This document shows, in pieces, positions 19,711-55,368 of a stretch of 64,000 nt of DNA; the stretch's first letter is position 1; each line of letters begins with the position of its first letter. The translations under genes were made by a program, and so were the position numbers. Under the pieces are notes generated by a model. The model had not been told where the DNA came from, searched no databases, and saw only the letters and a program-made list of their open reading frames with translations. This stretch comes from a bacterium. GTDB lineage: Bacteria; Eisenbacteria; RBG-16-71-46. Location of the stretch: assembly GCA_043779265.1 (NCBI GenBank), contig JAYWEM010000001.1, forward strand, positions 1 through 64,000, given 5' to 3'.

Positions 19711-19737
19711 TCAAGCTCCGGCGGGAGCCGCCGAGAC
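19711..19737 (+). promoter_or_regulatory. sigma28 (FliA)-like promoter of STAS gene
   Basis: TCAAG-N14-GCCGAGAC. Confidence 0.65.
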
Positions 19738-19842
19738 TTCTGGGGGACCGCAAGCCCGAGCCGGAGCGCTCGGGTCTGCCGCCTTCCGGCGAGTGCCGGT
19801 CGGCAACGCCACCCCCGCACGCCCGCGTGGAGAGCCCATCCG

Positions 19843-20202
19843 ATGCAGATCGAGGATCGTCACGAGGGCCCCGTGCTCATCGTCAAGCCGATGGAGCCGG
19901 CGCTCGACGCCTATGCCGCCGGCAGCTTCCGCGACCACATGGCCGGGCACATCCAGAGCGGAGATCGCCGCATCGTGCTCGACCTGTCGCAGATCCAGTT
20001 CCTCGACAGCACCGGTCTCGGCGCCATCGTGTCGAGCTACAAGCGACTCGAGGGTGACGGCACCGTGGTGATCTGCCACGCCGGCGAGATGGTGATGGAT
20101 GTTTTCCGACTGACGCGCATGGACCGGGTATTCCCGATCGTCCGCAGCGAGACCGAAGCGGTGAGCCAGGCTGGCCGCTACGAGATCCGCCGCGCCGCCT
20201 GA
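19843..20202 (+). CDS. STAS-domain anti-sigma factor antagonist (RsbV/HsbA-like)
   Basis: IVLDLSQIQFLDSTGLGAIV with phosphorylatable Ser; VFRLTRMDRVF. Confidence 0.92.
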   Translation: MQIEDRHEGPVLIVKPMEPALDAYAAGSFRDHMAGHIQSGDRRIVLDLSQIQFLDSTGLGAIVSSYKRLEGDGTVVICHAGEMVMDVFRLTRMDRVFPIVRSETEAVSQAGRYEIRRAA

Positions 20203-20224
20203 CCCACGCTTCCCCCGAAGCCAC

Positions 20225-20261
20225 GAGCGCCCGCGCTCCCGAGAGGGAGGCGCGGGCGCTC
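20225..20261. terminator. Probable intrinsic terminator between convergent genes
   Basis: GAGCGCCCGCG...CGCGGGCGCTC stem with GAGA loop followed by TTCGTT. Confidence 0.65.
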
Positions 20262-20289
20262 TTCGTTGCGATCGGGTGGCTTCGTTCGC

Positions 20290-23200
20290 CTACGGAGTCA
20301 CGACCACCGACCGCGTGGCCGTGAACTCGGAGGCGCGGAGCCGGGCGTAGTAGAGCCCCGAAGCCACGCGCCTGCCGCCCGCTCCGACGCCATCCCACGT
20401 GAACCGGTAGCGTCCTGCGGGCCGCTCCTCTCGAACGATGGTGTGGATGATGCGTCCCTGCGCATCGAGCACCTCGAGCCTGACCTGGCTTGCGCGAGGA
20501 AGATCGACCGCGAACGAGACACGCCCCGATGTGGGATTCGGCAGCGCCGGGCCCATGGCGAACTCACGCGGAAGGTCCGGATGCTCGACTGCGTTCCGCG
20601 ATGAAGCCGTGGTGGTGGTGTTGCTGAAGTGGCCCGCGACCTCGAGGAAGAATCTCCTCGTCAGCCCCTCGACCGGCGCCGGCGCGGCGAACAGTGCACT
20701 CGAAGGACTCTCAGGAGAGAGCACCAGCCCCTCACCATCCTCGGAACCGAGCGCGGCCACGTTCTCGAGCCCATCAGCCTGTAGCGCCTCGAGGAGATGC
20801 GTGGTCGTCGATGGAGCCAGCGAGCTCGCGAGGATGCGATCGAGCCCATGAACTCGTGTGGACTGGTCGGCGACCAGCCGAACGCGATCGCCCGCGATCG
20901 CCCCGATCCCGAAGGTGTCGATCTTCCGTCTCGGATGGATTCGGCGGATCGTCTGCCACGCGCCGCCCTGTCTTGCCTGGATGGCGAGACCATCGCCTGT
21001 TCCGGCCGAGGCGCGCTCGCACCGAAGCGCGAGGCCCCGGGCTTCTGCGGACGCCGGCCAAGCGAACTCGAGTGCCTGCCCCGGTGCCATCAGCACGCCG
21101 TCCTCGGGCGAGCGGAAGAGGTCGCCGAGACTCACTCCCGACTCATCCAGCACGACAGTCGGGGGCTCTGCAGTGCCAGCGAGGATGCCATCGGCTGTGG
21201 CGACCACCAGCACCTCGGCCGGGTGATCCACCACATGGAGTCGCATGGCATCGATCAGCGCACCACCTCGTGCCGAGGTGGTGAGTCGGACGGCGTAGCG
21301 CTCGCCGGTGGCATCGAGCGAGAGATCCGGCAGGCTGGCCAGTTGACGAGCCAGTGTGCCCGGCTCCACACCGTCGAGGAACGTGTTGCGCTCGGTGAGA
21401 TCCGATTGGGACGGCAACATGGAGAGGGCCCCGGCTCCACCGCGCCAGCTCAACGGATCCCACTCGCCACCGCCACCTCCGCAGAATGGCTGGCAGGGCG
21501 GCACACTCTGCTGGATCGTGATCTTCACAACGCGAGTGTCGACGTCGCCGCTCCCATCGGTGGCCCGGATGATCGCGTAGTGCACACCCGCGGCGGGCTG
21601 GGACCAGATGAACTGCCCGTTGTTGATGGCCGAGCCGGCAGGAAGCGAGGAGTGGACGAAGGAGACCACCTCGCCGTCGGCGTCCGAGGCGTTGACCGCG
21701 AACGTGAGGGCGTTGGCGGTCTCTCCCGTTTGGTCGGGGACAGCTAGGACGGGGGCATGATCGTCGTGGATGCGCTCGATCCACAGATCGATGTCGCCGC
21801 TCGACCGATGTCGCCGTTCGTAGGCGAAACGCTGTCCGCTCTTGGACCAGGCCGGCCTGTCCTGGAAATACTGCAGGTGCTGCGCGCGATAGAACGTGTC
21901 CCGAGGGGCGGACAGGGTGTCGAGCATCGCGACTCGCTGGGCGATGGTGCCCGCGGGACAGCCGAGGAGCGGGTTATCGGGCGCAACGGATGCTCGATTG
22001 TTCAACGGTCGTCTGTCGGCGATGAGAATCGGCCCACCTGCAGGATGCGGGTCGAACCCGGTGAGACCGAATCCGATCGCAGGCTCCTCCGTGAACTCGC
22101 CGCCCCAACTCCAGACGCCGTGCAGCCTTCCCCCCTTGCCCTCGAGCGGCATGAGGATCCGGGTCCCGTCGGCGTTCCATCGCGGCTTGGTGAAGGAGAT
22201 ATAGGTTCCGATCGTATCGATCAATCGATCGCCCTGTCCGTCCAGCCCCACCCAGCGAAGGTAGGCGAGTTCGCTGTTCGGGGGGATGTGAACATAGGCG
22301 ACACCCCGCCCGTTGGGCTGGAATGCGGGCATCGTCGCGTGTCCGGGCTGAGTCGAGATCGCATAGGGGCTCGCCGACGTGTCCGTCGTGGACCGTACGT
22401 AGATGGCCCCGGTGGATCCGATCATCGCCTCGAATGCGATCAGGTCGCGAAGCGGGGACCAATCGGGAGCGTACTGCTTGAAGTTGGTCATTCCGGTTCC
22501 GACGAGACGATGGGGCGAACCATCCATCCTTCGCCGATAGACCTTCGGCAGGGGTGATACGGAGAGGTCGGTGGCGCTGTACGCGATCTCATCGGAGTTC
22601 CAGGACCACGCCGGCAGGGCATCCCCGAACCCCGCCACCGCGCTGATGGGACCCGGAGGGGTGTAGGTGGCGCCCTCCGGGAGCAGCCGAACATCCAACC
22701 GATAGGGCACCCGCTCCCCGTATTGGGTCCCGAATTCATTTCCGCCATCGAGGGTCCCCGACTTGCCGTCCGCCAGAGTCAGCGTGAGGAACGCCGCCTT
22801 GTGTGTCGTGCCGAACTCGGGCACCACGATCGAGATCCTGCGACTGTCGAGCGAGTCGGTGCAGATGCTGTCGAGCGCGGTCGCCATGACCGCGGAGTTC
22901 GGGTAGCGGAACAGGTCGGACTCCTCACCCCCTCCATCGATTCGGTCATAGCCCACGACATTCGCGAGAATGCGAGCGTCCTTGTCCAGGAAGGTCCCGC
23001 CCGCGACCACATCGCAGGAGTAGCACTCGGTCGGCGTGATGTTCACGACGAGGGTCCTCGCGGTGCCGATGAGGCCGCTTGATGGCCGGATCACCCAGTG
23101 ATTCGCGGCGTAGGGCGCGAGTGCGAGCGGCATCTCGGCGCCGCGGAAGCTGCGAATTCCCACCAACGTGGTCTCACGGTCGACCTGCGCTGAGCCCAGT

Positions 23201-24537: not shown

Positions 24538-24667
24538 GTGCACACCCCCTGTGCTTCGGGCTCTCGAGCCCGTGTCCTGCGAACGGCTCCCGTCATCACG
24601 CGGTGATTGCAGGAATGCGAGATGCCGGAACGAGTGAGCTCGTTCGCTAAGACGAAATATGGCTTTC

Positions 24668-24678
24668 GGGGGGGGGGG
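24668..24678. repeat. G11 homopolymer in divergent intergenic region
   Basis: 11 consecutive G directly visible. Confidence 0.9.
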
Positions 24679-24701
24679 CAAGGTCAAGTAACATCTCGAA
24701 C

Positions 24702-26444: not shown

Positions 26445-26447
26445 TCT

Positions 26448-26885
26448 CTACGCCGCCAGGCGCTTGGTCATCGCCAGGGTGTTGCGGCCGGCGGCGGAGC
26501 GATACTCCACGTGATCCATGATCGAATGGATCAGATGCAGTCCCATGCCGCCCTCGGGCAGGTTCGCGGTGTCCGCCGGGTCGAACTCGAATCGCGGCCG
26601 CTGCGGCCCGCGATTGGGAGCGCCCGCATCGCACACTTCCACATTCAGTTCGTCTCCCTGATGCACGAACGACACCATCACCACGTGCCCGGGTTCGAGG
26701 CGATAGGCGTGGCGGATCACGTTGTTGATGGCCTCGACCAGCGCCAGTTCGACGAGCGCCGAGGCGCGCTGCTCGAGGCCCGCCTCGATGCACAGCGCCT
26801 TCAGCGCGCGTGCCGCGAACTGGACCTGGTCGAGCCGACTGTCGAGTCTCAGCTCGATCCGCCGCGGCCGGGGGGCGTTGCTCAT
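26448..26885 (-). CDS. Anti-sigma factor / Ser kinase (RsbW-like HATPase)
   Basis: ELALVEAINNVIRHAY, VCDAG, EGGMGLHLI; ATGA overlap with upstream gene. Confidence 0.9.
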   Translation of the reverse strand: MSNAPRPRRIELRLDSRLDQVQFAARALKALCIEAGLEQRASALVELALVEAINNVIRHAYRLEPGHVVMVSFVHQGDELNVEVCDAGAPNRGPQRPRFEFDPADTANLPEGGMGLHLIHSIMDHVEYRSAAGRNTLAMTKRLAA

Positions 26886-28057
26886 GCCGCCCTCCGCTCG
26901 AGCCCGAGCAGCGTGACGTCGTCGGGGAAGTGGTCGCTCGCGCTCCAGGCGCGCAGATCGTGCTCGATCGCCGAGACCGTGGCGTCGAGCGAGTGCGAGC
27001 AGCCCTCGCGCACGGCCTGCTCGAGCCGATCGATCAGGAACGGCCTGCGCTCGGCGTTCGGACACTCGGTGACGCCGTCGGAGTAGAGGAACAGCCGATC
27101 GCCGGGGGCGAACGGGTGCGTCTCCTCCTCGAACGTGAGTCCCGGCAGCATGCCGATCGGGAATCCCGATTCGCCGATCCGCTTGAGCTCGCCGCCTCGC
27201 GCCAACACCGGCGAGGGATGTCCGCCCTGCGCGATCGTGAGTTGGTCGGTCTCGGCGTCGATCAGCCCATAGAGGATCGTGAAGTACTTCATCGAGTCGA
27301 CGTCCGCCTGGAAGCGGTCGTTCAGTTCGGCGAGCACCTGCGCCGGCGGCAACGGCAGCATGCGCCCCTTGGCGGTACTTCTCAGCAGCAGGCCCTCGGG
27401 CGACAGCATCTTGCTCAGGGAGAACGACAGCATGGCCGAGGAGACGCCGTGGCCGGCGACATCGAGCAGGTAGAAGGCGGTGAATCGCGCGCCCAGCGCG
27501 TGCACGCCGAATACGTCGCCTGCGACCATGTTGGCCGGATGCAATCGCCACGAGGATCGGACCGCCGGCCACTCCTGTCCTGGAGGGGGTAGCAACGTGC
27601 GCTGCAGACTGGCGGCGGCCTCGAGATCGGCGCGCGAGGACTCGAGCGCTTCGCCGAGACGGCGGCCGCGCTCGGCGAGATCGCTCTCGAGTTTCAGGAC
27701 GCGCTCGCCGGCTCGCACCCGGGCTCGCAGTTCCTCGGCTTGGAACGGCTTCTCCATGAAGTCATCGGCGCCGGCATCCATTCCCTCGACCAGCGCGGCG
27801 ACACCGCTGCGCCCGGTCAACAGCACCACGTACGTGTAGCCCGAGCACTGGCCGGCGCGGATACGGCGCGTCAGTTCGATGCCGTCGACGCCGGGCATCA
27901 TCCAGTCGCTGATGACCATCCGGAACGGCTCGCTCTGGTAGAGCGCCCAGGCCTCCTCGCCGTCTCGCGCGACCACGACCTCGTGACCCCATTGCGTGAG
28001 GGTGCGGGTGAGGATGAGCCGGATGACGGATTCATCGTCCGCGACCAGGATGCGCAC
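26882..28057 (-). CDS. Response regulator receiver + SpoIIE/PP2C phosphatase (RsbU-like)
   Basis: ILVADDE, ISDWMMPG, GADDFMEKPF; AGDVF, LDVAGHGV, LYSDGVTE, DDVT; GTG start inferred. Confidence 0.92.
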   Translation of the reverse strand: MRILVADDESVIRLILTRTLTQWGHEVVVARDGEEAWALYQSEPFRMVISDWMMPGVDGIELTRRIRAGQCSGYTYVVLLTGRSGVAALVEGMDAGADDFMEKPFQAEELRARVRAGERVLKLESDLAERGRRLGEALESSRADLEAAASLQRTLLPPPGQEWPAVRSSWRLHPANMVAGDVFGVHALGARFTAFYLLDVAGHGVSSAMLSFSLSKMLSPEGLLLRSTAKGRMLPLPPAQVLAELNDRFQADVDSMKYFTILYGLIDAETDQLTIAQGGHPSPVLARGGELKRIGESGFPIGMLPGLTFEEETHPFAPGDRLFLYSDGVTECPNAERRPFLIDRLEQAVREGCSHSLDATVSAIEHDLRAWSASDHFPDDVTLLGLERRAA

Positions 28058-28140
28058 GCTCGGGCCTCGCTTGCCCAAAGCTGGGCGGCGGGATAGGGAT
28101 AGGGGGCGCCTCGTGGCCGGTGGGACCGGCCCTCTTCTGA

Positions 28141-28168
28141 TTCTCGGTCGATTCGGCGCGCGGCTTGA
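28141..28168 (-). promoter_or_regulatory. sigma28-like promoter of REC-PP2C/RsbW operon
   Basis: Minus strand TCAAG-N15-ACCGAGAA. Confidence 0.6.
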
Positions 28169-35169: not shown

Positions 35170-35811
35170 TCAGGCGGCGGAGGCCAGGTCGTTGCGACGC
35201 ACGTAGAGATCCATCTCATCGCGCGTGAATTCCTCCCACAGGCGGCCACTGTCGTGCAGCTGCACGAACGCATTGACCACATCGGGGAAGAACTGGGTGC
35301 CGGCGTGGCGCTTGAGTTCGTCGCATGCGGCACGAGGCGAGAGTCCCCGGCGGTAGGGGCGGTCCTCGGTCATGGCGTCATAAGCGGCACACGCCATCAC
35401 GATGCGCGCTCCGACCGGGATGCGATCGGCCGACAGCTTCGAAGGATACCCGGCGCCATCCGGTCGCTCGTGATGAGCGAGCACGATCTCGGCGGCGACC
35501 TCGAGACCCGGGATGTCCTTGAGCATCTCCCAGCCGATCGTCGGGTGGGTCTGCACCATCGCGCGCTCGGCCGGATCCAAGGCCCTCGGGCGAAGCAGAA
35601 CGTCGTTGAGGATCGCGTTGCGACCGAGGTCGTGGAGCATGGCACCCAGCTCGATGTCGAGCAGCTCATCGCCGGGGACGCCCAACTCGCGCGCCACTCG
35701 AACGGAGTACCGCGCCATGCGCAGCGAGCGACCGCGGGTGGTGGACTCGCTGGCGTCGATGACCGACGTCAGGGCGCGGACGGTGAGCGAGAGGGGTGTG
35801 CGCGGGTCCAT
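35170..35811 (-). CDS. Stand-alone HD-GYP domain protein
   Basis: LHDLGR, HHERPDGAGYP, YDAMTEDRPYR, GTQFFP; GGAGG RBS. Confidence 0.9.
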   Translation of the reverse strand: MDPRTPLSLTVRALTSVIDASESTTRGRSLRMARYSVRVARELGVPGDELLDIELGAMLHDLGRNAILNDVLLRPRALDPAERAMVQTHPTIGWEMLKDIPGLEVAAEIVLAHHERPDGAGYPSKLSADRIPVGARIVMACAAYDAMTEDRPYRRGLSPRAACDELKRHAGTQFFPDVVNAFVQLHDSGRLWEEFTRDEMDLYVRRNDLASAA

Positions 35812-35869
35812 GGGTCCTCCGGGCGAGGCGGGCCGAGAAACGGACCGCGTCTCAGTGGGTTCCCACGCG

Positions 35870-35897
35870 GTATCGGCCACGTCGGCACCGGACTTCA
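35870..35897 (-). promoter_or_regulatory. sigma28-like promoter of HD-GYP gene
   Basis: Minus strand TGAAG-N15-GCCGATAC. Confidence 0.6.
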
Positions 35898-35936: not shown

Positions 35937-35964
35937 TCAAGCCATTCCGCTCAAGTGCCGATTT
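35937..35964 (+). promoter_or_regulatory. sigma28-like promoter of GAF-HD-GYP gene
   Basis: TCAAG-N15-GCCGATTT, ending 10 nt before ATG 35975. Confidence 0.6.
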
Positions 35965-35974
35965 CACCGGCATC

Positions 35975-37216
35975 ATGGCCCAGCCCCAGCCCCCAGATCC
36001 CCTGCGTCCGGATCGCCTCTCGCCTCAGGCCGAGGAGGCGGCGGATCACACCATCCTCGCGGCGCGTCCCATCTCCGAATGGGTCGACGTGCAGGGGAAG
36101 GTGGTGCGCTCGGATGCCCGCATCGCCGAGCTGATGCTGGGACTGGTGAGCGAGACCTCCGCGGCCCGCACGGACGAGCGTCGGCTGCTCGAGGTCATCG
36201 CCGACTTCGCCTTCCGTGCCTTTCCCAATGCGACGCATCATCTGCTGATCGCGCTCGAGGACGATGCCGTGCTGCGTCCCCTGCTCGCGCGTACGCGAGG
36301 TGGTGGGCCGGCGCCGGCCACGATCAGCCGGACGCTCGTCCAGCGCGTGCTGGCCGATCGCCAGGCGATGCTGGTGGCGCATGGGCAGGGAGCCTTCGAT
36401 CCGACGCAGAGCATGGTGCTGTCCCAGATGGAGACCGCCATCGCGGCGCCGCTGCTTGGCAGCCGGCTGCCGCTGGGTGTCATCCAGATGGACATCCGCC
36501 GTCCGGGTAAAGGCCGTTTCGGTCGCGAGGACCTGGACCTCCTGTCGGTCTTCGCCAGCCAGGCCGCGCTGGCGCTGGAACATCTTCGGATGCATCAGCA
36601 GCAGCGGCGCGCGTTCCAGAGCACGATCGGTGCGCTGGTGCACTCCCTCACGCTCAAGGACCCGGATGCGGCGCTCCACAGCGAGCGCGTCCAGGCCGTC
36701 GCCGTCGCGATCGGACAGCACCTCGGACTGACCGGGGACTCACTGCAGATCCTCTCGGTGGCCGCGCTGTTGCACGATCTCGGCAAGCAGGGTGTCCGCG
36801 ATGAGGTGCTGTTCAAGGCGGGCCGGCTCACCGAGAACGAGCGCGCCGAGATGGATCATCACGCCGCTTACACGCAGACCATCCTCGACAAGATCGAGTA
36901 CCCCGAGGAGCTTCGCGATGTGCCGCGGATCGCCGCCTACCATCACGAGAAGCTCGACGGCACCGGTCCCTTCGGGGTGGCGGGCGAGGACATCCCGATG
37001 GCGGCGCGCATCATCTCCGTCGCCGATGTGTTCGACGCGCTGATCTCGCCTCGCGTCTACAAGCAGCCGCTCGCTCCGGCCGCGGTGCTCGACGTGCTCG
37101 AGCGCGGACGCGACGTGGACTGGGACGGCAGCATCATCGATGCCCTGCGCAGCGTCGTGCTGAACGTGCTCGAGGAGACGTACGGCATGGACGAGGACGG
37201 GCAGCTGGCCGCCTGA
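35975..37216 (+). CDS. GAF + HD-GYP domain protein (start may be 35927)
   Basis: AIAAPL...GVIQMD...F..EDLDLL..FASQAA GAF; HSERV, LHDLGK, HHEKLDGTG, ADVFDAL.SPRVYK. Confidence 0.9.
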   Translation: MAQPQPPDPLRPDRLSPQAEEAADHTILAARPISEWVDVQGKVVRSDARIAELMLGLVSETSAARTDERRLLEVIADFAFRAFPNATHHLLIALEDDAVLRPLLARTRGGGPAPATISRTLVQRVLADRQAMLVAHGQGAFDPTQSMVLSQMETAIAAPLLGSRLPLGVIQMDIRRPGKGRFGREDLDLLSVFASQAALALEHLRMHQQQRRAFQSTIGALVHSLTLKDPDAALHSERVQAVAVAIGQHLGLTGDSLQILSVAALLHDLGKQGVRDEVLFKAGRLTENERAEMDHHAAYTQTILDKIEYPEELRDVPRIAAYHHEKLDGTGPFGVAGEDIPMAARIISVADVFDALISPRVYKQPLAPAAVLDVLERGRDVDWDGSIIDALRSVVLNVLEETYGMDEDGQLAA

Positions 37217-39456: not shown

Positions 39457-41790
39457 CTAGCCCGAGTGCCGAAGCATCTCGAGCATCGCAGCGGCCGTCT
39501 GGGGACGGTCGTCCGCGAAGCGCGACATGGAACGCATGACGATCTCGTTGACCCCGGCCGGGATGCCAGCGGCGACCTGGTCGAGCGCCGGGACATCGGC
39601 CTCGAGGTGCTGGAACAGCACGTTCACGGCGTTCGCGCCGGCGAATGGCTGCTTCCCCGACAACATCTCGTAGAGCACGATTCCGAGCGAGTAGAGATCC
39701 GAACGCGCATCGATCTCGTGGCCGGTGATCTGCTCGGGTGAGATGTACTCGGGCGTGCCCACCAGGATGCCGCTCTGGGTCAGGCGCGAGCGCGAACTCT
39801 GCGAGACGGCTGCGAGGCCGAAGTCGACGATCTTGGCCGTGTCGAGCTTGTCGATGAGCAGGTTGGCGGGCTTGATGTCGCGATGGATGATCCCCAGCGC
39901 GTGCGCCGCGGTCAGTCCCTCGAGCACCTGGTCGGCGATGTGCAGCACGCGCGCCACCGGCATGGGCCCGTCCTGCCGCAGTGCGGTGCCCAGATCGCGT
40001 CCATCGAAGTGCTCCATCGAGATCGCGTGCGCGCCGCGCAGATCGAGCAGGTCGTGGATGCGGATGACGTTGGAGTGCGTGATGCGCCGCGTCAGTTTCA
40101 GTTCCTGCACGAAGCGCTTGATCATCGCCTCGTCCATCGACAGCTGCGGGCTGAGGATCTTGAGCACCAGTTCCTCGCGCACCACGGTGTCCTCGACGAG
40201 GTACACGGTTCCGAATCCACCGCCGCCGATCCGCTGCAGCACTCGGAAGCGCTCGATGAGCACGGTACCCGGCTCGAGGCGCTGGAAGTGGAGCGTGCGA
40301 TGCGAATCCTGATGGACGCCTTCGACACCGGCGCTCGGTGTTCCGCGCTTGGAGCCCGAGTCGGATCGACCGGTGTCCGGCCCGTAACTGCCGCGGACTT
40401 CCAGCGGCATCGGGTTGCTGCCACTGCCCCCGGCACCGGCCTCCCGCAGCGTGTCGAGCAGCGTGGTGCGCTCGCTGTCCGGCAGTTCCATCTTCGACAT
40501 GCTCGACAGCGCGTGCAGCGCCTCGCGTCGGATCTCGCTGCTATCGGATCGCGCCAGCTGGCAGATGGGCTCGACCGCGCGGACGTCCGCGAGCTTCGCC
40601 AGGGCACGGATGCAGAGCGGAATGGCGCGCGTGTCACGGTGCAGCAGGTGGAGCAGTGGCTCGACGGCACGGTTGTCGCCCGTCTTGGCCAGAGCGTCGA
40701 TGGCGCGCTCGCGCACCCACCAGTCGGGATCTTGGAGCGCGTCGATCAGCGCCGGGACCGCGCGCTTGTCCGGCACGGTGTTGAGGATCTCGACGGCGTA
40801 GCGCCGAACGAAATCATCGCCGTCGCGCACCAGCCCGATCACGGCCTCCACGACGCGCGTGCCGCCCAGGGTGCCCAGGGCATCGGCGGCGCGAACGCGC
40901 ACCCACCAGTCCTGGTCGCGCAGGGCCGAGACGAGGTCCTTGATGGCATCGACGGTGACGACCTGATTGAGCACCTCGACCGCGCTGCGGCGCACGTATT
41001 CCGAGTCATCCTTCAGGGCATCGAGCAGGTGGGGCACGGCGTTGACGTCGCCGACCGCGATCAACGTCTCGATGCTGGCGTTCTGCACCTTCATGTCGGA
41101 GTCACGCAGCATGCCACACAGGGCCGGGACGGCTGACGTGGCCTTGAGCTGCCCGAGCGCCTTGACCGCCTCGAGCCGCACCGCCGCCGTGGGGTCGGTG
41201 AGTCGTCCCGTCAGCGCCTGGATCGACTCGGGCGTGTCGAATCGGCCGAGCAGCCGCGAGAGATGCAGCCGCAGCCACCAGTCGTCGTTCGAGAGATAGG
41301 CTGCGGCATCGCGAACGATGGTGGCGTCGGCGCTGCGCTCGATCAAGCGGAAGACGCTGCCACGGGCATCCTTCGTCAGCTCGGGCAGGAGGCGGAGCAG
41401 CGTGGACGTCTGCACGCGCGGCAGCTGCTCCTGAAGAACCGCTTCGAGACGCGCCTTGCTGACGCGCGAATCGGCGAACAGCGGCAGCAGCTCCGTCGGC
41501 TCGTAGTGCTCACCCGCTGCGAGGGCGCGGGTCGCGGCCTCGGCGACCGGAGCGCTCTGGGAGCGTAGCGCCTCGACGTAGTGCGACAGCGTCTCCTTCG
41601 TCAGCAGCCGGCCGAGGACGAACTGCAGCGAGTCCAAGCTGGCACCACCCTGAGCCGCGTCGAACAGCGACTTGATCGCGGATCCGCCCAGCGTCAACAG
41701 GTGCTCCTCCGCCGCTCGCGCCTCCGACTCATCCGTCGAGGCGAGGCGGCGAACGAGGTGTCCGGCCTGGAAGCGCTTGAGGAGGTCCAT
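39457..41790 (-). CDS. HEAT-repeat protein with C-terminal Hanks-type Ser/Thr kinase
   Basis: Repeated L.D.DWWVR..A..ALG HEAT units; GGGGFGTVY, HRDIKPAN, DFG, GTPEYISPE. Confidence 0.92.
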   Translation of the reverse strand: MDLLKRFQAGHLVRRLASTDESEARAAEEHLLTLGGSAIKSLFDAAQGGASLDSLQFVLGRLLTKETLSHYVEALRSQSAPVAEAATRALAAGEHYEPTELLPLFADSRVSKARLEAVLQEQLPRVQTSTLLRLLPELTKDARGSVFRLIERSADATIVRDAAAYLSNDDWWLRLHLSRLLGRFDTPESIQALTGRLTDPTAAVRLEAVKALGQLKATSAVPALCGMLRDSDMKVQNASIETLIAVGDVNAVPHLLDALKDDSEYVRRSAVEVLNQVVTVDAIKDLVSALRDQDWWVRVRAADALGTLGGTRVVEAVIGLVRDGDDFVRRYAVEILNTVPDKRAVPALIDALQDPDWWVRERAIDALAKTGDNRAVEPLLHLLHRDTRAIPLCIRALAKLADVRAVEPICQLARSDSSEIRREALHALSSMSKMELPDSERTTLLDTLREAGAGGSGSNPMPLEVRGSYGPDTGRSDSGSKRGTPSAGVEGVHQDSHRTLHFQRLEPGTVLIERFRVLQRIGGGGFGTVYLVEDTVVREELVLKILSPQLSMDEAMIKRFVQELKLTRRITHSNVIRIHDLLDLRGAHAISMEHFDGRDLGTALRQDGPMPVARVLHIADQVLEGLTAAHALGIIHRDIKPANLLIDKLDTAKIVDFGLAAVSQSSRSRLTQSGILVGTPEYISPEQITGHEIDARSDLYSLGIVLYEMLSGKQPFAGANAVNVLFQHLEADVPALDQVAAGIPAGVNEIVMRSMSRFADDRPQTAAAMLEMLRHSG

Positions 41791-41820: not shown

Positions 41821-42438
41821 TCAGCGGGGAAGCAGCAGGTACATGGCTCCAGCGCCCAGTAAGGCGCCGAGCAGGAAGGTCACGACCAACGTGGAAGTCG
41901 AGCTCGACGCGGACGGCGCCGCCGATGTCGAGACCGAACCCGAACCCGAACCCATGGCCGATGTTGCGGTGGGAGCCTGAGCCGTCGAGGCGATCGGCAG
42001 CGGCGGGGGTGGGGAGCTCTCCTTCTCGCGCTGCGTCTCGAGCAGATGCCCGAGCTCGGTGCGCGACAGGATGACCGTGTGCTGCTCGGCGTCCGACGGG
42101 CGGCGCGCATCCGCGGCCAGTGTCCGGCGATCGATCTCATAGCCGACCCACAGCGTGTACTTGCCGAAACGGACCACGTCGTTGTTGCGGACCACGGCCG
42201 TGTTGACCGCCTGGTCGTTCACGAACGTGCCGTTGGCGCTGCCCAGATCGACGACCTGGTAGTCGCCATTGGACGTGCGCTCCATGCGGAAGTGGTCACG
42301 CGAGATGCCGGGATTGTCGACGAACACGTCGGCCGCGGGATCGCGTCCCACGCTGACGACCTGCTTGTCGAACGTGAAGTTGCGCACGGGGCGCCCCATC
42401 AGGGACAGGCGCAACTTGAGGAGCTGGGGTTCGGACAT
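41821..42438 (-). CDS. FHA-domain protein with C-terminal membrane helix
   Basis: VGR...ISRDH...DLGSANGTFVN FHA motifs; hydrophobic C-terminus; GGAGG RBS. Confidence 0.9.
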   Translation of the reverse strand: MSEPQLLKLRLSLMGRPVRNFTFDKQVVSVGRDPAADVFVDNPGISRDHFRMERTSNGDYQVVDLGSANGTFVNDQAVNTAVVRNNDVVRFGKYTLWVGYEIDRRTLAADARRPSDAEQHTVILSRTELGHLLETQREKESSPPPPLPIASTAQAPTATSAMGSGSGSVSTSAAPSASSSTSTLVVTFLLGALLGAGAMYLLLPR

Positions 42439-42512
42439 GGCGTCCTCCGACACGGGTTTCCGAGAGGCCGCCCGTCATCAAGAGCGAGACGGGGCGGTCC
42501 TGTTCCTTGGGC

Positions 42513-42540
42513 TCATCGGCGCATCGAGAGTTCGACTTGA
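42513..42540 (-). promoter_or_regulatory. sigma28-like promoter of FHA-kinase-pilT-pilT operon
   Basis: Minus strand TCAAG-N15-GCCGATGA. Confidence 0.65.
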
Positions 42541-47030: not shown

Positions 47031-47054
47031 GCGGAGTCGTACGAAGCGAAACGA

Positions 47055-47088: not shown

Positions 47089-47108
47089 CGCCAGGTGTAC
47101 CGGTGCCG

Positions 47109-50276: not shown

Positions 50277-50292
50277 CCCGAGGCGCGGAGAC

Positions 50293-50333
50293 GACCGAGG
50301 CCCCGCAGCGCTCAGCGCCGCGGGGCCTCGGTC
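50293..50333. terminator. Hairpin between convergent genes
   Basis: GACCGAGGCCCCGC/GCGGGGCCTCGGTC 14-bp stem. Confidence 0.6.
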
Positions 50334-50348
50334 ATGATGGAATCGGCG

Positions 50349-50762
50349 TCAACCGTCGGTGCCGGTCGCAGCCTCGGGGGGCGCATCGGCCGCCGGGCGC
50401 GCGGCGTTCATCAGTTCCTGGATCTTGCGGGTCAGGATGTCGGGCGTGAACGGCTTGACCACGAAGCCGCTGACGCCGGCGCGCGTCGCCTCGGACATGT
50501 CGTCCTTGATGTGGCGGGCGGTGACGAGCAGGACGGGGATGTGGACCAGGGCCGGATCCTGGCGGATCTTGCGGACCAGATCGACGCCGGACATGCCCGG
50601 CATGTTCCAGTCGGTCATGATCAACGCGAGATCCGCAGTGCATTGGGTGATCGCGGCTTCGGCGTCGGCAGCCTCGAGCACGGTCTCGAACCCCATCTGC
50701 TTGAGACTGTTGACGAGGATGCGCCTCGTCAGCGACGAGTCATCCACGACCAGGCACTTCAT
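50349..50762 (-). CDS. cheY: CheY-like single-domain response regulator
   Basis: LVVDDS, TDWNMPGMSG, VT, VVKPF; in flagellar locus. Confidence 0.8.
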   Translation of the reverse strand: MKCLVVDDSSLTRRILVNSLKQMGFETVLEAADAEAAITQCTADLALIMTDWNMPGMSGVDLVRKIRQDPALVHIPVLLVTARHIKDDMSEATRAGVSGFVVKPFTPDILTRKIQELMNAARPAADAPPEAATGTDG

Positions 50763-50790
50763 CGCGCCATCCCCCTCGATCGAACCGGAC

Positions 50791-51099
50791 TCAGATGTCG
50801 CTCGCGATGCGGAGGAGCACTTCGTCGATGACTTCGGGCTTGTCGTAGTCGCCTCGGGCGATCCGCTCGGAGATGCCGTGGAGACGTCCCTCGTCCAACT
50901 CGCCGTGCGGAATGCTCTCGGGTCCCGCGTGCGTCTGCAGCAGACGAGCGGGGGTCGAGATCTGCACCTCGTCGTTGCGAGTCGGGGCTCCGCTGGCGCC
51001 TGCGGTGCGCTCCGGCTTGGAGCCGGTGCGCGTGGGAACGTCCTCGCGCGTGCGGTCGATGCGCGAGGAAGGTCCGGGCGTAGTGGGTCGGATGGTCAT
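50791..51099 (-). CDS. flgM: Flagellar anti-sigma28 factor
   Basis: 102 aa; DEVQIS..AR and RL..ISERIARGDY motifs; own sigma28-like promoter. Confidence 0.75.
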   Translation of the reverse strand: MTIRPTTPGPSSRIDRTREDVPTRTGSKPERTAGASGAPTRNDEVQISTPARLLQTHAGPESIPHGELDEGRLHGISERIARGDYDKPEVIDEVLLRIASDI

Positions 51100-51191
51100 G
51101 ATCCCCTCGTTGCGTGGTCCCGGCTGGAGGGCGGAGCGCCACTCGGTTCGCCGGATGCCGTGGGGGACGAATCCCCCTCGGCTCGCTTCCA

Positions 51192-51219
51192 GTATCGGAA
51201 GGTCCTTGCGCCGACTTGA
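51192..51219 (-). promoter_or_regulatory. sigma28-like promoter of flgM-cheY
   Basis: Minus strand TCAAG-N15-TCCGATAC. Confidence 0.7.
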
Positions 51220-51253
51220 GTGTGTCCCTTGCAGAATGCGCTCCGGCGGGGGC

Positions 51254-51658
51254 TCACGCGGCCGCTTCCGAGCTCGCCGGCTCGGAGCTGCGCGTGGACA
51301 GCCCGTCGGCGAGCTGGCGATTGATGCCGACCAGGGCCTGGATCCCCTCGCGATTCGGCTCGGACAACAACGCGAACGTCCGCCGGTCGACGAATCGCGA
51401 GAGCTGCAGCAGATTGACGCGCAAGGAGCGGGGCAGCGAGCACTCGGGCGATACCCACTCGCCCTGGAAGAACGTCCACAGGCGCTGATTGTGCCGCAGC
51501 GCCTGGGATAACTGCTCCTCGCAGCCGGGCTCACCCCAGATGCGCTGGCAGTCCTCCAACTGGCGCGCCGCCCGGCTCAGGGCAGCCGCTTCGAGTTCCC
51601 TCCCGGACGAAGCCGTGCGGGACCCGGAGTCATACGCGCGGCGTGGGCCGTTGAACAT
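51254..51658 (-). CDS. flaF: Flagellar biosynthesis regulator/flagellin chaperone FlaF
   Basis: RELEAAALSRAA, AL.HNQRLWT, LP.SLR.NL..L..FV, L..INR.LA.GL. Confidence 0.88.
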   Translation of the reverse strand: MFNGPRRAYDSGSRTASSGRELEAAALSRAARQLEDCQRIWGEPGCEEQLSQALRHNQRLWTFFQGEWVSPECSLPRSLRVNLLQLSRFVDRRTFALLSEPNREGIQALVGINRQLADGLSTRSSEPASSEAAA

Positions 51659-52037
51659 GCTCGAGAAGCTCCTTCTCGTGGGCCATCAGGTCGCGGCCCA
51701 GTTTGAGCGCGTGGTAGTAGCGTCCCTCTTCGACGCACTTGTCGATCGGTTCGAGGTATCGGCGAGAGCTGGGGCTGGCATCCAGCACATCTTCGACCAA
51801 CAGCCGGTAGCTGCGCTCGTGGGACTCGCGCCGCTGCGGGTCGACGTACATCAACTGGATGGAGAGCACGATGTGCTCGCACGGGCTCTGCACCGCCGCA
51901 GGACTGAGGATGTCACTCCCGCGCAGCACCGGGACCTCGGTCTCCACGAAGAGCTCGGCCCGGTTGCGACCGTTGGTGAGGACCGCACCGCCGATGATCG
52001 CGCGTTCCTGCGGTTTGAGTGTGAGACGGAGCGCCAT
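51630..52037 (-). CDS. flbT: Flagellar biosynthesis repressor FlbT
   Basis: MALRLTLKP.ER.IIGGAVL.NG, SPC..I...IQLMY, G.YY.ALK..R.L...E. Confidence 0.9.
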   Translation of the reverse strand: MALRLTLKPQERAIIGGAVLTNGRNRAELFVETEVPVLRGSDILSPAAVQSPCEHIVLSIQLMYVDPQRRESHERSYRLLVEDVLDASPSSRRYLEPIDKCVEEGRYYHALKLGRDLMAHEKELLEHVQRPTPRV

Positions 52038-52101
52038 GGGGTTCCTGTCGTCAGACGTCGGTGTCTTTGTCCCGGATGCGTCATGCATCCTTCGGCGGGC
52101 A

Positions 52102-52139
52102 CCGGTGGCGGGGGAGGCTTCTGGTCCCCCGTTCACCGG
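52102..52139. terminator. Hairpin downstream of flagellin
   Basis: CCGGTG-GCGGGGGA...TCCCCCGT-T-CACCGG imperfect inverted repeat. Confidence 0.45.
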
Positions 52140-52218
52140 CCCGCGTTTTCTTACGTTTCAAGGCCAGCCTGCGCCGGAGTCGGTTCCGCCGATCCGGACG
52201 CCTGCGGGCCCGCCTCGG

Positions 52219-53034
52219 CTAGAAAAGCCGGAGAACGGACTGCTGCGCCTGCGATGAGAGCTGCAGAGCGACGACGCCAAGCTGCTGACGCGTCTGCAGG
52301 GCGAGCATGTTCGCACCCTCTTCGTTCGAGTCCGCCGCCGTGAGCATGTCCGCGCCCTCGGTCAGCGTGTTGATCATCTCGGTGGTGAACTCCTGACGCG
52401 TGGTCACGACGCCGTTGCTGGACGACAGCGTCTTGGCCTGTGTACGGAGCTCGGTCAGTGCGGCGTCGAGGTCCGAGACGGCACCGTCGACATCCGCGTC
52501 CGCAGCCCAGGAGTTGGCAGCTGCGTCGATCGCCAGATCGCCGGCGACCGTGGCATCGAAGCCCGAGATCGTCAGCGCCGAGGATCCGTCCTCGTTGAAC
52601 TCCACCGTCAGGTCGTCGCCGTCCAGGAAGTTCGTGCCCTTGTAGCCGGAGTCGGTCGCAAGGTTGTCGATCTGGGTGCGCAGCGCGTCGAACTGGGTCG
52701 CGAGCGTCGCACGGTCGGCAGTCGACGCCGAACGGGCGGAAGCTGCGAGACCCTTCATCTGCTCGACGATCTTGGTGATCGCCTCGATACCCTTGAGCGA
52801 CGCCTTCACCGTCTGGATCGCCTCACCCATCGTGTCCTTGCGGGCCGCGAGGTCCTGGGCACGGTTGGTGTGGTTCTGGGCGGCGAAGTAGGCCGCCGCG
52901 TCATCGACGGCGGAGTTGACGCGCTTGCCGGTGGCCAGACGCGTCGTCGTGCGGCCCTGCAGGGCTGCCGTCATCTGCAGCTGGATCAGGTTGCCACGCA
53001 TTCCGCCCGACAGGTTGATGTCATTGATCGCCAT
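52219..53034 (-). CDS. fliC: Flagellin (short, alphaproteobacterial-type), copy 1
   Basis: RLATGKRVNSAVDD N-domain; AD.NEEGANMLALQTRQQL...SVLRLF C-domain; 271 aa. Confidence 0.93.
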   Translation of the reverse strand: MAINDINLSGGMRGNLIQLQMTAALQGRTTTRLATGKRVNSAVDDAAAYFAAQNHTNRAQDLAARKDTMGEAIQTVKASLKGIEAITKIVEQMKGLAASARSASTADRATLATQFDALRTQIDNLATDSGYKGTNFLDGDDLTVEFNEDGSSALTISGFDATVAGDLAIDAAANSWAADADVDGAVSDLDAALTELRTQAKTLSSSNGVVTTRQEFTTEMINTLTEGADMLTAADSNEEGANMLALQTRQQLGVVALQLSSQAQQSVLRLF

Positions 53035-53117
53035 GGTGAAACGGTCCCCTTCTCGGGATCTGGAGGTTGTCATCCCGGCTTCTGCCTGGCGGTCGACGCT
53101 TCGGCCGACAGACAGGA

Positions 53118-53144
53118 GTCTCGGCTGACCATTCCCCGGCTTGA
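53118..53144 (-). promoter_or_regulatory. sigma28-like promoter of flagellin copy 1
   Basis: Minus strand TCAAG-N14-GCCGAGAC. Confidence 0.7.
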
Positions 53145-53340
53145 GACCACGCCAAGCGAGATTCGCTGGCCTGGGTGCGATGCCCCACGCTTCGGCGGCC
53201 GAGTCGGGAGCGGATCGGGACGACAACAGACCAGCGGGCGGGTGCATGCCGCACCCGGCCCGCTGGCCGTGACCTCCGTGTCGCTCCGATGGCGGCGGGC
53301 GGATCCTCCGCCCTCGTCGCCTCCGGTTCCCGGTGTTCGA

Positions 53341-54156
53341 CTAGAAGAGTCGGAGCACCGACTGCTGCGCCTGCGAGGAGAGCTGCAGGGCGACGACGCC
53401 GAGCTGCTGACGCGTCTGCAGGGCGAGCATGTTGGCGCCCTCCTCGTTCGAATCCGCCGCCGTGAGCATGTCGGCGCCCTCGGTCAACGTGTTGATCATC
53501 TCGGTCGTGAACTCCTGCCGTGTCGTCACGACGCCATTGCTCGAGGAGAGCGTCTTGGCCTGCGTGCGCAGCTCGGTCAAAGCGGCATCCATCTCACCGA
53601 TGGCGACGTCGACATCGGTGTCCGCCACCCATGCGTTGGCGGCTCCGGCGATGGCGAGATCGCCGCCGACCGTGGCATCGAAGCCCGAGATCGTCAGCGC
53701 CGAGGTTCCATCCTCGTTGAACTCCACCGTCAGAGTGTCCGCGCTCAGGAAGTTCGTGCCCTTGTAACCGGAATCGGCCGCCAGGTTGTCGATCTGCTCG
53801 CGCAGCGCATCGAACTGGGTCGCCAGCGTGGCGCGGTCGTTCGCGGTGGCCGAGCGTGCGGAGGCCGCGAGGCCCTTCATCTGCTCGATCAGGCGCGAGA
53901 TGCCCTCGATGCCCTTGAGCGAGGCCTTCACGGTCTGGATCGCCTCGCCCATCGAGTCCTTGCGGGCGGCCAGATCACTGGCGCGGTTCTGGTGGTTCTG
54001 GGCGGCGAAGTACGCCGACGCATCGTCCACCGCGGAGTTCACGCGCTTGCCCGTCGCGAGGCGGGTCGTGGTGCGGCCCTGCAGTGCGGCCACCATCTGC
54101 AGCTGGATCAGGTTGCCACGCATGCCGCCGGACAGGGTGATGTCGTTGATCGCCAT
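53341..54156 (-). CDS. fliC: Flagellin (short, alphaproteobacterial-type), copy 2
   Basis: Same motifs and same length (271 aa) as copy 1. Confidence 0.93.
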   Translation of the reverse strand: MAINDITLSGGMRGNLIQLQMVAALQGRTTTRLATGKRVNSAVDDASAYFAAQNHQNRASDLAARKDSMGEAIQTVKASLKGIEGISRLIEQMKGLAASARSATANDRATLATQFDALREQIDNLAADSGYKGTNFLSADTLTVEFNEDGTSALTISGFDATVGGDLAIAGAANAWVADTDVDVAIGEMDAALTELRTQAKTLSSSNGVVTTRQEFTTEMINTLTEGADMLTAADSNEEGANMLALQTRQQLGVVALQLSSQAQQSVLRLF

Positions 54157-54233
54157 GACTCGAACTCCCTTCTGGAGTGCTGTTCTCGCCCTCGGCATTC
54201 TGCCGGGGCGCGTGTTTCACACGCTGGGCCCTA

Positions 54234-54260
54234 CTCTCGGCAGAGTGGGGCCGGGCTGAA
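54234..54260 (-). promoter_or_regulatory. sigma28-like promoter of flagellin copy 2
   Basis: Minus strand TTCAG-N14-GCCGAGAG (degenerate -35). Confidence 0.55.
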
Positions 54261-54387
54261 GGGGGGGATGTGCTGGATCGCGCGATGGCTCGTGCGGATC
54301 GCGGACGGCACCCGCAAATGGCGGCAAGTGCGTCGTGCGGCTCGGCGCGATGCATGGCGCTGAGCGGGACGAGCAGGGATAGGCGAA

Positions 54388-54418
54388 GCGCCGCGACCCC
54401 TTTCGGGAGCCGCGGCGC
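54388..54418 (-). terminator. Probable terminator after flgL
   Basis: GCGCCGCG/CGCGGCGC stem. Confidence 0.55.
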
Positions 54419-54441
54419 CTGATGCCTGCCTCAGCCGTGGA

Positions 54442-55308
54442 TCAGCGCAGGTATTCGGTCAGTGTCGCCTGCATGACACGACCGATGGTGGCATAGGCTC
54501 GCTCGAGCGCCGCCTGCTCCTGCTGCAGGCGCACGATGGCCTCCGCCGGATCGACGCTCACCAAGGCGTCCCGCCGCTCGAGCAGGAAGGACTGGATGCG
54601 GGCCAACCGAAGTCCACCATCCTGGATCTCCTTCAGGCGCGAGCCGGTCTCGGCCTGTGCCCGCATCACGGTCTGGGTCGAACTCTCGAGGTCGACCGAG
54701 ACAGTTCGGATGTCCGCCTGAGTGCCGCTCTGGAGCGCGGTGATCAGGTCGTCCATCGCCGCCATCGCACCGCCGAACAGGGCGCCGCCCTCGTGGTTGA
54801 CCGTCACGCCGACGCCATCGCCCACGGTGACGCTGCGCGAGGCGCTGTCCCCGACGTACGTTCCGTCCGCCCGGAAGGGCGGCGTGGTCGTCTGCGCCCC
54901 TCCGAAGAGGTACTCGTTCCCGACCCGGGTGTTGCCGAGCGAGACCAGTTGGGCCTTGAGTTGTTGGACGGCCGAGAGCGCCGCCAATCGCTGCGGGTCG
55001 GTGGGGTCGTTGCCGGTCGTCGTCGCCGCCAGATTCTTGGCTTCCCGGAGGGCGGCGAGGACACTGGAGAGCGAGATGTCCTCGGCCGATAACCGCGTCG
55101 TCGCGAAAGTTCCGTTGCGGCGGTATTGTTCGATGTCCCGGGCCTGTGCCTCCAGGCGCATCATCTGGGAAGCGTCGATCGGATCGTCGGAGATCGAACG
55201 GACTCGGCGTCCTGTTGCAGCTTCGGAAGCAGCACGTTCCAGCGCTTGAAGCCGGCCGCGAAGGCCGGAGGTCAGACTGCGCTGGATCATCTGATTGGTG
55301 ATCCGCAT
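54442..55308 (-). CDS. flgL: Flagellar hook-associated protein 3
   Basis: MRITNQM, ATGRRV..ISDDP, GN....EYLFGG..T...PF, VD.AEA...L......LE.AY. Confidence 0.88.
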   Translation of the reverse strand: MRITNQMIQRSLTSGLRGRLQALERAASEAATGRRVRSISDDPIDASQMMRLEAQARDIEQYRRNGTFATTRLSAEDISLSSVLAALREAKNLAATTTGNDPTDPQRLAALSAVQQLKAQLVSLGNTRVGNEYLFGGAQTTTPPFRADGTYVGDSASRSVTVGDGVGVTVNHEGGALFGGAMAAMDDLITALQSGTQADIRTVSVDLESSTQTVMRAQAETGSRLKEIQDGGLRLARIQSFLLERRDALVSVDPAEAIVRLQQEQAALERAYATIGRVMQATLTEYLR

Positions 55309-55340
55309 GGAACCCCCTCGTCGGTGCGGGTCTGAGAGCA

Positions 55341-55368
55341 GTATCGGAAACGCATGGAAGCGGCTTGA
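55341..55368 (-). promoter_or_regulatory. sigma28-like promoter of flgL
   Basis: Minus strand TCAAG-N15-TCCGATAC. Confidence 0.7.

Follow-up and report, generated by a model that had tools for sequence, protein, structure and literature searches.

Nine sigma-28-type promoters in an Eisenbacteria contig are probably divided between two sigma-28 paralogues

The stretch of DNA analyzed here, hereafter the window, comprises the first 64,000 nucleotides (nt) of contig JAYWEM010000001.1 (forward strand, GenBank assembly GCA_043779265.1), from a bacterium of the Eisenbacteria. An initial annotation of the window described nine sites resembling promoters of the flagellar sigma factor FliA (sigma-28), some before flagellar genes and others before signaling and pilus-type ATPase genes, and proposed that all of them form one FliA program co-induced with the filament. 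We find that the sites are indeed of the sigma-28 type and that they are probably divided between two sigma-28 paralogues with different preferences: sigma-F, encoded with the window’s flagellar cluster, and sigma-U, encoded on another contig. A single FliA regulon is unlikely, since the genome has two sigma-28 factors, several of the promoters persist in relatives without flagella, and the sites carry different -10 and spacer signatures.

A scan of the window for the pattern T(C/G)AAG-N14/15-(G/T/A)CCGA(T/G) returned eight exact matches, at +19711 and +35937 and, on the minus strand, at 28168-28143, 35897-35872, 42540-42515, 51219-51194, 53144-53120 and 55368-55343. The ninth site, before flagellin 2, is degenerate (TTCAG...GCCGAGAG at 54260-54233, minus strand). 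Dinucleotide shuffles of the window (n = 200) gave a mean of 0.96 matches and a maximum of four, and the average density across the genome of the window (G000; 68% GC, assembly 92% complete, gene calls from a simple purpose-made caller) is 3.4 per 64 kb. All nine sites lie in intergenic DNA and point toward the genes originally named, whose domains were confirmed by profile searches. The sites thus stand where the initial annotation had placed them, with the bipartite layout of the sigma-28 (FliA/WhiG) class, i.e., a TAAA/TCAAG-like -35 and a GCCGATAA-like -10 at fixed spacing. No match to a sigma-70 promoter or a terminator was found in 49500-57200 of the window.

The comparison with coding and wrong-strand DNA that had been proposed as a check came out mixed. 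The bare pattern is noisy, as 122 of its 180 genome matches fall in coding DNA; the intergenic matches number 42 in the right and 11 in the wrong orientation, and five lie at contig ends. Nevertheless, the orientation bias of the intergenic matches is significant (p = 3.5e-5; 76 per Mb vs. 17-26 per Mb) and the enrichment is specific to the spacer: in 1517 upstream regions of G000, the pattern’s spacers of 14 and 15 gave 14 and 19 matches (shuffles, 0.5-0.8), and 13 other spacers gave 0-3 each. The matrix built from the four flagellar sites, a further proposed check, returned at 18 bits 17 intergenic right-oriented sites, one wrong-oriented, four coding and one at a contig end, with 0-1 right-oriented sites for each of four control spacer pairs. 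The many coding matches would favor ascribing the non-flagellar sites to chance, at a GC content of 68%, but the specificity for spacer and orientation speaks against it, and the conservation of site positions before orthologues, which the initial annotation had also wished to see examined, already contradicts it; we regard chance as extremely improbable.

A search for fliA, likewise suggested at the outset, found two genes. The two FliA/WhiG sigma factors of G000 both exceed the TIGR02479 cut-off and are 38% identical. Sigma-F (G000:C1:77664-78446) closes the export operon of the window’s flagellar cluster, 14 kb past the window. Sigma-U (G000:C18:8543-9415) lies in a locus with csrA, a 68-residue gene, a histidine kinase, a sigma-54 activator, a receiver and a MinD-family ATPase, followed by GGDEF and kinase genes; it is flanked by a FlgM-like gene and a GGDEF gene, and each sigma has its own FlgM-like gene. 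Names of genes outside the window (flhA, flhF, flhG, flgN, etc.) are labels given from sequence and gene order, with no family scan. At least one sigma-28 is present in 39 of 41 relatives, among which flagellin was found in 13 and FliG_C in 12, and in 146 of 153 genomes of the phylum, where copies were typed only in smaller sets. Sigma-F is present only alongside the window’s type of flagellar cluster. The pair is not a binning artefact, as the single-contig genome G022 has both sigmas on its one contig. Region 2 of the two proteins differs at fixed positions, and the position equivalent to W433 is tryptophan in 31/31 sigma-U and proline in 8/8 sigma-F sequences.

Several further genes were noted at or near such loci. 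Between the receiver and the FlhG-like gene of the sigma-U locus (G000:C18:7169-7638) are encoded a 79-residue protein resembling sigma-70 region 4 and a 77-residue protein of no recognized kind; such genes occur in 50 and 63, respectively, of 80 sigma-U loci, and it is possible that they are extra regulators of sigma-U. In G038 (L316:8502-8873), a sigma-28-like fragment just upstream of sigma-U takes the position of the small region-4 gene. G099 has yet another sigma-28, of a third kind (G099:C70:10405-11067), which is 37% identical to sigma-F, has the best TIGR02479 score of the phylum search, and lies 11 kb from a site with the F pattern defined below. The sigma-F gene of G121 (G121:C76:40079-40846, L386) has one in-frame TGA, and that genome has no exact F site; the stop may mean that the second system is decaying or that the sequence is in error.

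In describing the promoter classes, we count as spacer the 15 or 16 bases that separate TCAAG from CCGA, and positions are numbered with the A of CCGA as -11, following PMC12784957. The F type has a 15-nt spacer and CCGA-NNN-T, with T at -7; the U type has a 16-nt spacer and GCCGAT, with T at -10. Among the 38 right-oriented intergenic G000 matches, 12 of 15 with spacer 15 have -10G and 20 of 23 with spacer 16 have -10T, so that spacer and -10 base covary (table 12/3/3/20, Fisher p = 8.6e-5). All 14 flagellin promoters of F-system clusters (from 10 genomes) combine spacer 15 with -7T and none has -10T, while FHA-operon promoters have -10T in 17/19 and -7T in 0/19. Both scoring matrices were trained on genomes other than G000. 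The U matrix comes from 33 sites in four non-flagellated genomes, with the orthologues of the first HD-GYP gene and the FHA operon excluded and five further doubtful or orthologous loci dropped, and the F matrix comes from five flagellin promoters and one motA promoter. A sigma-70-like pocket for -7T in sigma-F was considered and is unsupported, for this pocket needs region 1.2, which group 3 sigmas lack (PMC12784957). Nor does the Pseudomonas aeruginosa sigma-28 point to a structural cause for the two classes, as the same source reports that it has no tryptophan at the W433-equivalent position, gains nothing from adding one, and has no conserved -7 base.

By these signatures, the nine window sites sort into F (STAS, REC-PP2C, flagellins 1 and 2), U (both HD-GYP genes and the FHA operon) and hybrid (flgM and flgL). 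The promoter at 19711..19738 (+) is of the F type (TCAAG-15-CCGAGACT; U 13.8, F 22.4 bits) and precedes a STAS anti-anti-sigma protein (19843..20202, +; PF01740, and TIGR00377 over cut-off). It is of the F type in 4/4 orthologues found, all from flagellated genomes, and the STAS gene itself was found in 5/41 genomes, each of them a flagellated genome with an F site. The promoter at 28140..28168 (-) leans toward F (TCAAG-16-CCGAGAAT; F 16.1, U 13.5 bits), and its box is CCGAGACT in G001, G002 and G003. It precedes the genes for a REC-PP2C (SpoIIE-type) phosphatase (26882..28057, -; PF00072 and PF07228) and an RsbW-like HATPase_c_2 anti-sigma factor/kinase (26448..26885, -; PF13581, below the RsbW equivalog cut-offs). 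Flagellin 1 (52219..53034, -; PF00669/PF00700) has an F-type promoter at 53117..53144 (-; TCAAG-15-CCGAGACT; U 13.8, F 22.4 bits), as does flagellin 2 (53341..54156, -; family profile match) at 54233..54260 (-; TTCAG-15-CCGAGAGT; F 16.2, U -3.2 bits).

The U-type promoter at 35869..35897 (-; TGAAG-16-CCGATACC; U 23.9, F 9.1 bits) precedes an HD-GYP gene (35170..35811, -; PF13487) with the phosphodiesterase motifs, i.e., the HD dyad and an intact HHExxDGxGYP, and is kept in the non-flagellated genome G024. A second U-type promoter at 35937..35965 (+; TCAAG-16-CCGATTTC; U 19.2, F 1.9 bits) precedes a GAF-HD-GYP gene (35975..37216, +; PF13487 and GAF) whose GYP motif is degenerate (GTGPFG). This site would be intragenic with a start at the ATG of 35927, but conservation (5/5 aligned genomes) points to the ATG at 35975. 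The start codon follows position -7 by 9 nt, the same distance in 5/5 genomes, and no Shine-Dalgarno sequence is present (35937-35977, +); the transcript is probably nearly leaderless and made by a sigma-28. The first HD-GYP orthologue stands alone as a domain under a U promoter of its own in genus g1, whereas in families f2 and f3 (L083-L090) a membrane protein of 650-780 residues, encoded immediately behind pilT, ends in it. The third U-type promoter (42512..42540, -; TCAAG-16-CCGATGAG; U 22.8, F 8.2 bits) precedes an operon that begins with an FHA-domain protein (41821..42438, -; PF00498) and continues with a HEAT-repeat Ser/Thr kinase (39457..41790, -; PF13646 and PF00069, catalytic motifs seen) and two PilT/PilU-family ATPases (38340-39443 and 37270-38343, -; both over the TIGR01420 cut-off).

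The two hybrids share the form TCAAG-16-CCGATACT, with both -10T and -7T. One, at 51191..51219 (-; U 21.8, F 18.2 bits), precedes flgM (50791-51099, -; weak PF04316 match plus synteny, E 0.08 against 5e-4 for the G002 orthologue) and a CheY-like receiver (50349-50762, -; PF00072); the other, at 55340..55368 (-; U 21.8, F 15.3 bits), precedes flgL, which stands alone (54442..55308, -; TIGR02550 over cut-off). In G000, the flagellin genes, flgM, flgL and motA all carry a sigma-28-type promoter. Two weaker sites had not been listed before: one at 9482-9510 (+), before the gene at 9620 (U 15.3 bits), and one at 14624-14653 (-), before an aspartokinase-like gene (F 12.7 bits).

The two classes differ in their distribution among relatives. 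The exact F pattern, TYMAG-N15/16-CCGARACT, was fixed before it was counted; the count covered 60 genomes of the family, sorted by how many sigma-28 copies they have. The 20 two-copy genomes yielded 149 matches (median 6; at least four in 15/20), and the 40 others yielded 27 (median 0, maximum 3; at least four in 0/40). A within-genus permutation over the six mixed genera reached the observed contrast in 18 of 20000 trials, with four genera in agreement and two opposite; in genus g2, for example, two-copy genomes had 2-20 sites vs. 0 and 0, and in g23 4-6 vs. 0-2. The presence of FliG agreed with copy number in 5/5 genomes checked. When outliers were checked afterwards, the single copy of G104 proved to be F-type, the second copy of G099 was not F-type, and the F copy of G121 was the stop-interrupted one. 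In contrast, the U pattern was equally common with and without flagella in the five genomes counted (three with one sigma-28, two with two), at 12-18 copies each against 0-2 for controls.

This persistence extends to individual promoters, with the HD-GYP and FHA-kinase-pilT promoters kept in relatives in which no flagellin, FliG or flagellar FliA was found. In G024 (99% complete), where no flagellin, FliG or flgK was found, the neighborhood is syntenic with the window and lacks STAS and REC-PP2C/RsbW, yet keeps the U sites before HD-GYP and FHA. The GCCGAT box of the FHA operon is kept in 10/11 loci from genomes with no flagellum found (53-100% complete), and the csrA promoter scores at least 14 bits under U in 43/46 loci. 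The sites are thus not all tied to the FliA of the export operon, as the U sites persist in genomes in which neither sigma-F nor flagella were found.

We also examined the predicted targets, with domains annotated by home-made hidden Markov models. With an 18-bit threshold, about 38 targets in G000 lean to U and 15 to F; of these, 10/38 and 5/15 carry signaling or pilus-ATPase domains, compared with about 3.5% of background genes; the enrichment is also significant outside contig C1. The regulon therefore does reach far beyond flagellar genes, as had been claimed, and is rich in signaling (15/53 targets vs. 45/1465 background genes). On the U side, they include four genes for histidine kinases, one further HD-GYP and one further PilT gene (each the third), a lone receiver and csrA, besides many envelope genes or genes of no assigned function; a prepilin-like gene and a REC-GGDEF gene fall just under the threshold. 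For no fewer than six of the G024 sites, the orthologous G000 gene is also preceded by a U site. Among the F targets are motA (16.9 bits), REC-HDOD, REC-CheX-like, H-NOX and MshEN-ATPase genes. In G003 and G011, 29 F sites were found, and the 27 genes scanned comprised six HDOD genes, four histidine kinases, one methyl-accepting chemotaxis protein (MCP), one CheW-CZB and one flgL, the rest being varied or without a name.

The two systems appear to have different histories. The sigma-U sequences of our tree make up one clade that mirrors the division of the genomes into families, and in family f2 (G025 and G027) sigma-U is the last gene of flhB-flhA-flhF-flhG-fliA, i.e., the flagellar FliA. The native cluster of G025 reads flgK-flgL, csrA, flagellin, flgM, kinase, sigma-54 activator, receiver, basal-body genes, flhG, sigma-U, kinase. 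In families f1 and f3 the structural genes are gone, while csrA, a short FlgM-like gene, the kinase, the sigma-54 activator, the receiver, a MinD/FlhG-like ATPase and sigma-U keep their order; the G025 order minus its structural genes is that found at C18 and in G024, G026 and G028, and partly in G038 and G039. From this order, sigma-U is most likely the resident sigma-28 of the phylum, retained after loss of an earlier flagellum. In G027, with sigma-U as its flagellar sigma, the flagellin promoter has -10T, unlike the 14 flagellin promoters of the F system.

Sigma-F falls in a separate group with 99-100% support, one cluster of which has Gemmatimonadales members. An approximately unbiased (AU) test rejected U and F as one clade (p-AU 3.7e-7); it covered 37 rows, chosen from 142 after earlier trees had been seen, and the trees used in the analysis were quick and FastTree ones. 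A Gemmatimonadales-labeled flagellin is 72% identical to flagellin 1, compared with 26-29% for f2 flagellins. By taxon, relatives of sigma-F are labeled Eisenbacteria or Gemmatimonadales, and some probably come from mislabeled bins; a plasmid search for them returned only matches of 34-41%. The simplest reading of the trees is that the second flagellum was probably gained later, and there is a weak indication that it came from a Gemmatimonadota-like lineage.

The short FlgM-like gene beside csrA corresponds to the C-terminal part of FlgM only. The full-length FlgM of G025 passes PF04316 (28.8 vs. 25 bits), and the short forms score 14.8-17.2 bits or give no match. A predicted complex of sigma-U with the short protein scored 0.73 (best control 0.00), with 88% agreement of contacts and a predicted local distance difference test (pLDDT) value of 69-70 for the partner, whose modeled contacts lie on residues 172-230 of the folded chain; the mark for such models was reached by 116/157 solved pairs and 2/215 mismatched pairs. 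As FliA-FlgM complexes have already been solved, we take the model as a likeness and not as proof.

Several points weigh against a division between the two sigmas. The two sigma clades, the two motif classes and their co-occurrence are observations, from which we infer which sigma reads which class; this assignment by co-occurrence involves related genomes that are not independent. The non-U/F rows of the tree were picked by likeness to sigma-F, and the F matrix rests on six sites. The classes have TCAAG and CCGA in common, the classic flagellar targets flgM and flgL score higher under U than under F, and the REC-PP2C site of G000 leans to F by just 2.6 bits. The phyletic contrast runs the wrong way in two of the six mixed genera (g19 and g34), and G119 remains an exception, with an F copy and only one F site. 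A looser F pattern gave no signal above controls in five genomes, G007, G020 and G022 among them, so an expanded F regulon is not general. Nor is the split clean by function, as one pilus-type MshEN-ATPase gene has an F site. Some cross-reading is likely, given the shared TCAAG and CCGA and the finding that, on overexpression, the actinobacterial paralogues WhiG1 and WhiG2 show mutual complementation (PMC13595943).

The main competing explanation takes such cross-reading further: sigma-F would read both classes, or both sigmas would fire together, and the nine promoters would in effect be one program co-induced with the filament. The common -35 and CCGA core, the hybrid promoters and the WhiG1/WhiG2 cross-complementation are all in its favor, as are the alignment of the base-reading residues of P. 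aeruginosa sigma-28 with residues conserved in both sigmas and the fact that U-type operons adjoin the flagellar cluster in G000, G002, G003 and G023. Against this, the U-type FHA promoters are not shifted toward F in genomes that bear sigma-F (-7T in 0/7), G024 keeps its U sites in the same neighborhood without flagella, and each sigma is paired with a FlgM-like gene; we consider one effective program unlikely. Less likely still is that sigma-U reads all sites, with the F class being a weak, activator-needing sigma-U promoter or one read by another factor borne on the cluster, and sigma-F playing a minor role. The flgN-flgK promoter of G025, where sigma-U is the sole sigma-28 found, does have a 15-nt spacer and GCCGATACT, and genomes without sigma-F have 0-3 F-pattern sites. 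However, F sites rise with the presence of sigma-F inside genera g2, g3 and g23, the genome with an internal stop in sigma-F has none, and the native flagellin promoter of G027 carries the -10T seen in none of the 14 F-system flagellin promoters.

If the sites are divided between two sigmas, as we favor, a sigma-54 activator would transcribe the basal-body genes and the sigma-F gene (fliA-F). Such an activator is encoded in the flagellar cluster (REC-sigma54 activator, 55445..56806, +; PF00072/PF00158/PF02954), and a sigma-54-type -24/-12 site (57018..57033, +) lies before flgB, which opens a run of operons closed by fliA-F past the end of the window. Such sites, judged by the sigma-54 consensus, are present before flgB in 4/4 and flgF in 7/7 F-system loci and fit with a cascade from sigma-54 to sigma-F. 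After export of FlgM, sigma-F would transcribe the 15-nt, CCGA-NNN-T promoters of the flagellins, motA, HDOD/EAL and chemosensory genes, STAS and PP2C/RsbW. Sigma-U would be held by the truncated and probably non-exported FlgM, made from sigma-U’s own csrA promoter, and would transcribe the 16-nt GCCGAT promoters of HD-GYP, FHA-kinase-pilT-pilT, csrA and several hybrid kinases, which looks like an older program of surface motility and cyclic di-GMP (c-di-GMP) needing no flagellum. The flgM and flgL promoters, with both signatures, would be the likely point of cross-talk.

Accordingly worded for the window, the grouping of non-flagellar sites with the filament holds in part: partner-switching (STAS, REC-PP2C/RsbW) probably goes with the filament, and c-di-GMP turnover, the kinase and PilT (both HD-GYP genes and the FHA operon) probably follow the older program. 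A more far-reaching joint reading, which we offer only tentatively and hold to be doubtful as a whole, is that a phylum-wide sigma-28 state switch, built from the regulators of a lost flagellum (sigma-U, FlgM cut to its sigma-binding end, CsrA and an FlhG-like ATPase), runs a pilus-motor/c-di-GMP program, and that one family later took up a foreign flagellum with a near-orthogonal code, in which the spacer has 15 nt, -7T is required and the -10 base is free. The regulons would then be insulated except at the hybrid flgM/flgL promoters, where the old switch would gate the new flagellum.

The idea of a swarmer-state program found no support, in that no MCP or other chemoreceptor was found in the 92%-complete G000 assembly, compared with 2-7 matches in G003, G022, G024 and G025; either the gene is unassembled or the flagellum works without chemoreceptors. 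No flgK was found in G000 either, which is probably an assembly gap, as the contig ends just past the gene that precedes flgK in G003 and G022. The cluster also encodes FlbT (51630-52037, -; PF07378) and FlaF (51254-51658, -; PF07309), proteins known from Caulobacter (PMC13277936). FlaF, FlbT and short flagellins (best NCBIfam matches PRK12688/PRK14708) here co-occur with FliA and FlgM (51254-54156, -); Caulobacter, used as a control in the sigma-28 profile search, gave no match. A GGCAGAA motif together with a stretch resembling a hairpin recurs in the flagellin leaders of 12 of 14 loci, those of the window (53035-53110 and 54157-54225, -) among them, and is a candidate site for FlbT or CsrA. 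Three secreted-looking proteins with a C-terminal FlgD-Ig domain (20290-24543, 31828-34338 and 48657-50276) are unrelated to the flagellar flgD gene and to the promoters.

Broad FliA regulons, FliA and FlgM without flagella, paired flagellar and non-flagellar sigma-28s, and dual-flagellum pairs are all already known. A literature search that mostly did not extend to subscription journals turned up no work on sigma-28 in Eisenbacteria, and none on co-resident sigma-28s that differ in promoter code. What is offered here is a regulatory map for an uncultured phylum, drawn from sequence alone and the first to our knowledge in the literature searched, and a natural pair of co-resident sigma-28s with a readable difference in promoter preference. 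A sigma-28 favoring -7T, and one with a tryptophan reported absent, would refine the structural account of promoter melting by group-3 sigmas. In the P. aeruginosa open complex, sigma-28 reads a GCCGATAA box with a flipped -11A, and the description given there has no conserved base at -7 and no tryptophan at the W433-equivalent position (PMC12784957). The positions of Y76, R80, D87 and R97 are kept in both Eisenbacteria paralogues, which differ from that system in the -7T of the F promoters and the tryptophan of sigma-U.

The closest parallel is found in the Actinobacteria, where WhiG1 and WhiG2 are two sigma-28 clades, one tied to a flagellar cluster and one not, with predicted WhiG targets that include c-di-GMP enzymes, type IV pili, chemotaxis and response regulators and a consensus of XT(C/A)AX...GCCGA (PMC13595943). 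Both phyla thus have a flagellum-linked and an unlinked sigma-28 with overlapping kinds of targets. However, WhiG1 and WhiG2 are sister clades that arose by duplication, with similar promoters, and WhiG2 is held by RsiG/c-di-GMP (PMC13595943), while the Eisenbacteria sigmas are not sisters, have a FlgM-like gene each, and differ in promoter spacer and -10/-7 bases. Whether co-occurring paralogues share regulons was left open for WhiG1/WhiG2 in the same source. Non-flagellated Legionella keep fliA, flgM, fleN, fleQ and a FliA regulon (reviewed in PMC5655016), so that there, too, flagellar regulators outlive the structural genes, but this concerns a few species of one genus, and, in that review's account, the relic is not joined by another flagellum with a FliA of its own; the Eisenbacteria relic is in nearly all sampled genomes of the phylum and includes csrA. 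The U class has the geometry of the Bdellovibrio FliA attack-phase promoters (TTAAG-N16-CCGATA at 92/140 mapped promoters, mostly non-flagellar; PMC3627812), although Bdellovibrio has one FliA, a flagellated cell and mapped transcription starts, compared with two sigmas known from their genes here. Finally, Plesiomonas, with polar and lateral flagella, has FliA and FliAL with regulons of 515 and 37 genes (PMC11242183), and so resembles the present case in having two sigma-28s with regulons of unequal size in one cell; both of its sigmas serve working flagella, whereas in the Eisenbacteria one of the two has lost its flagellum.

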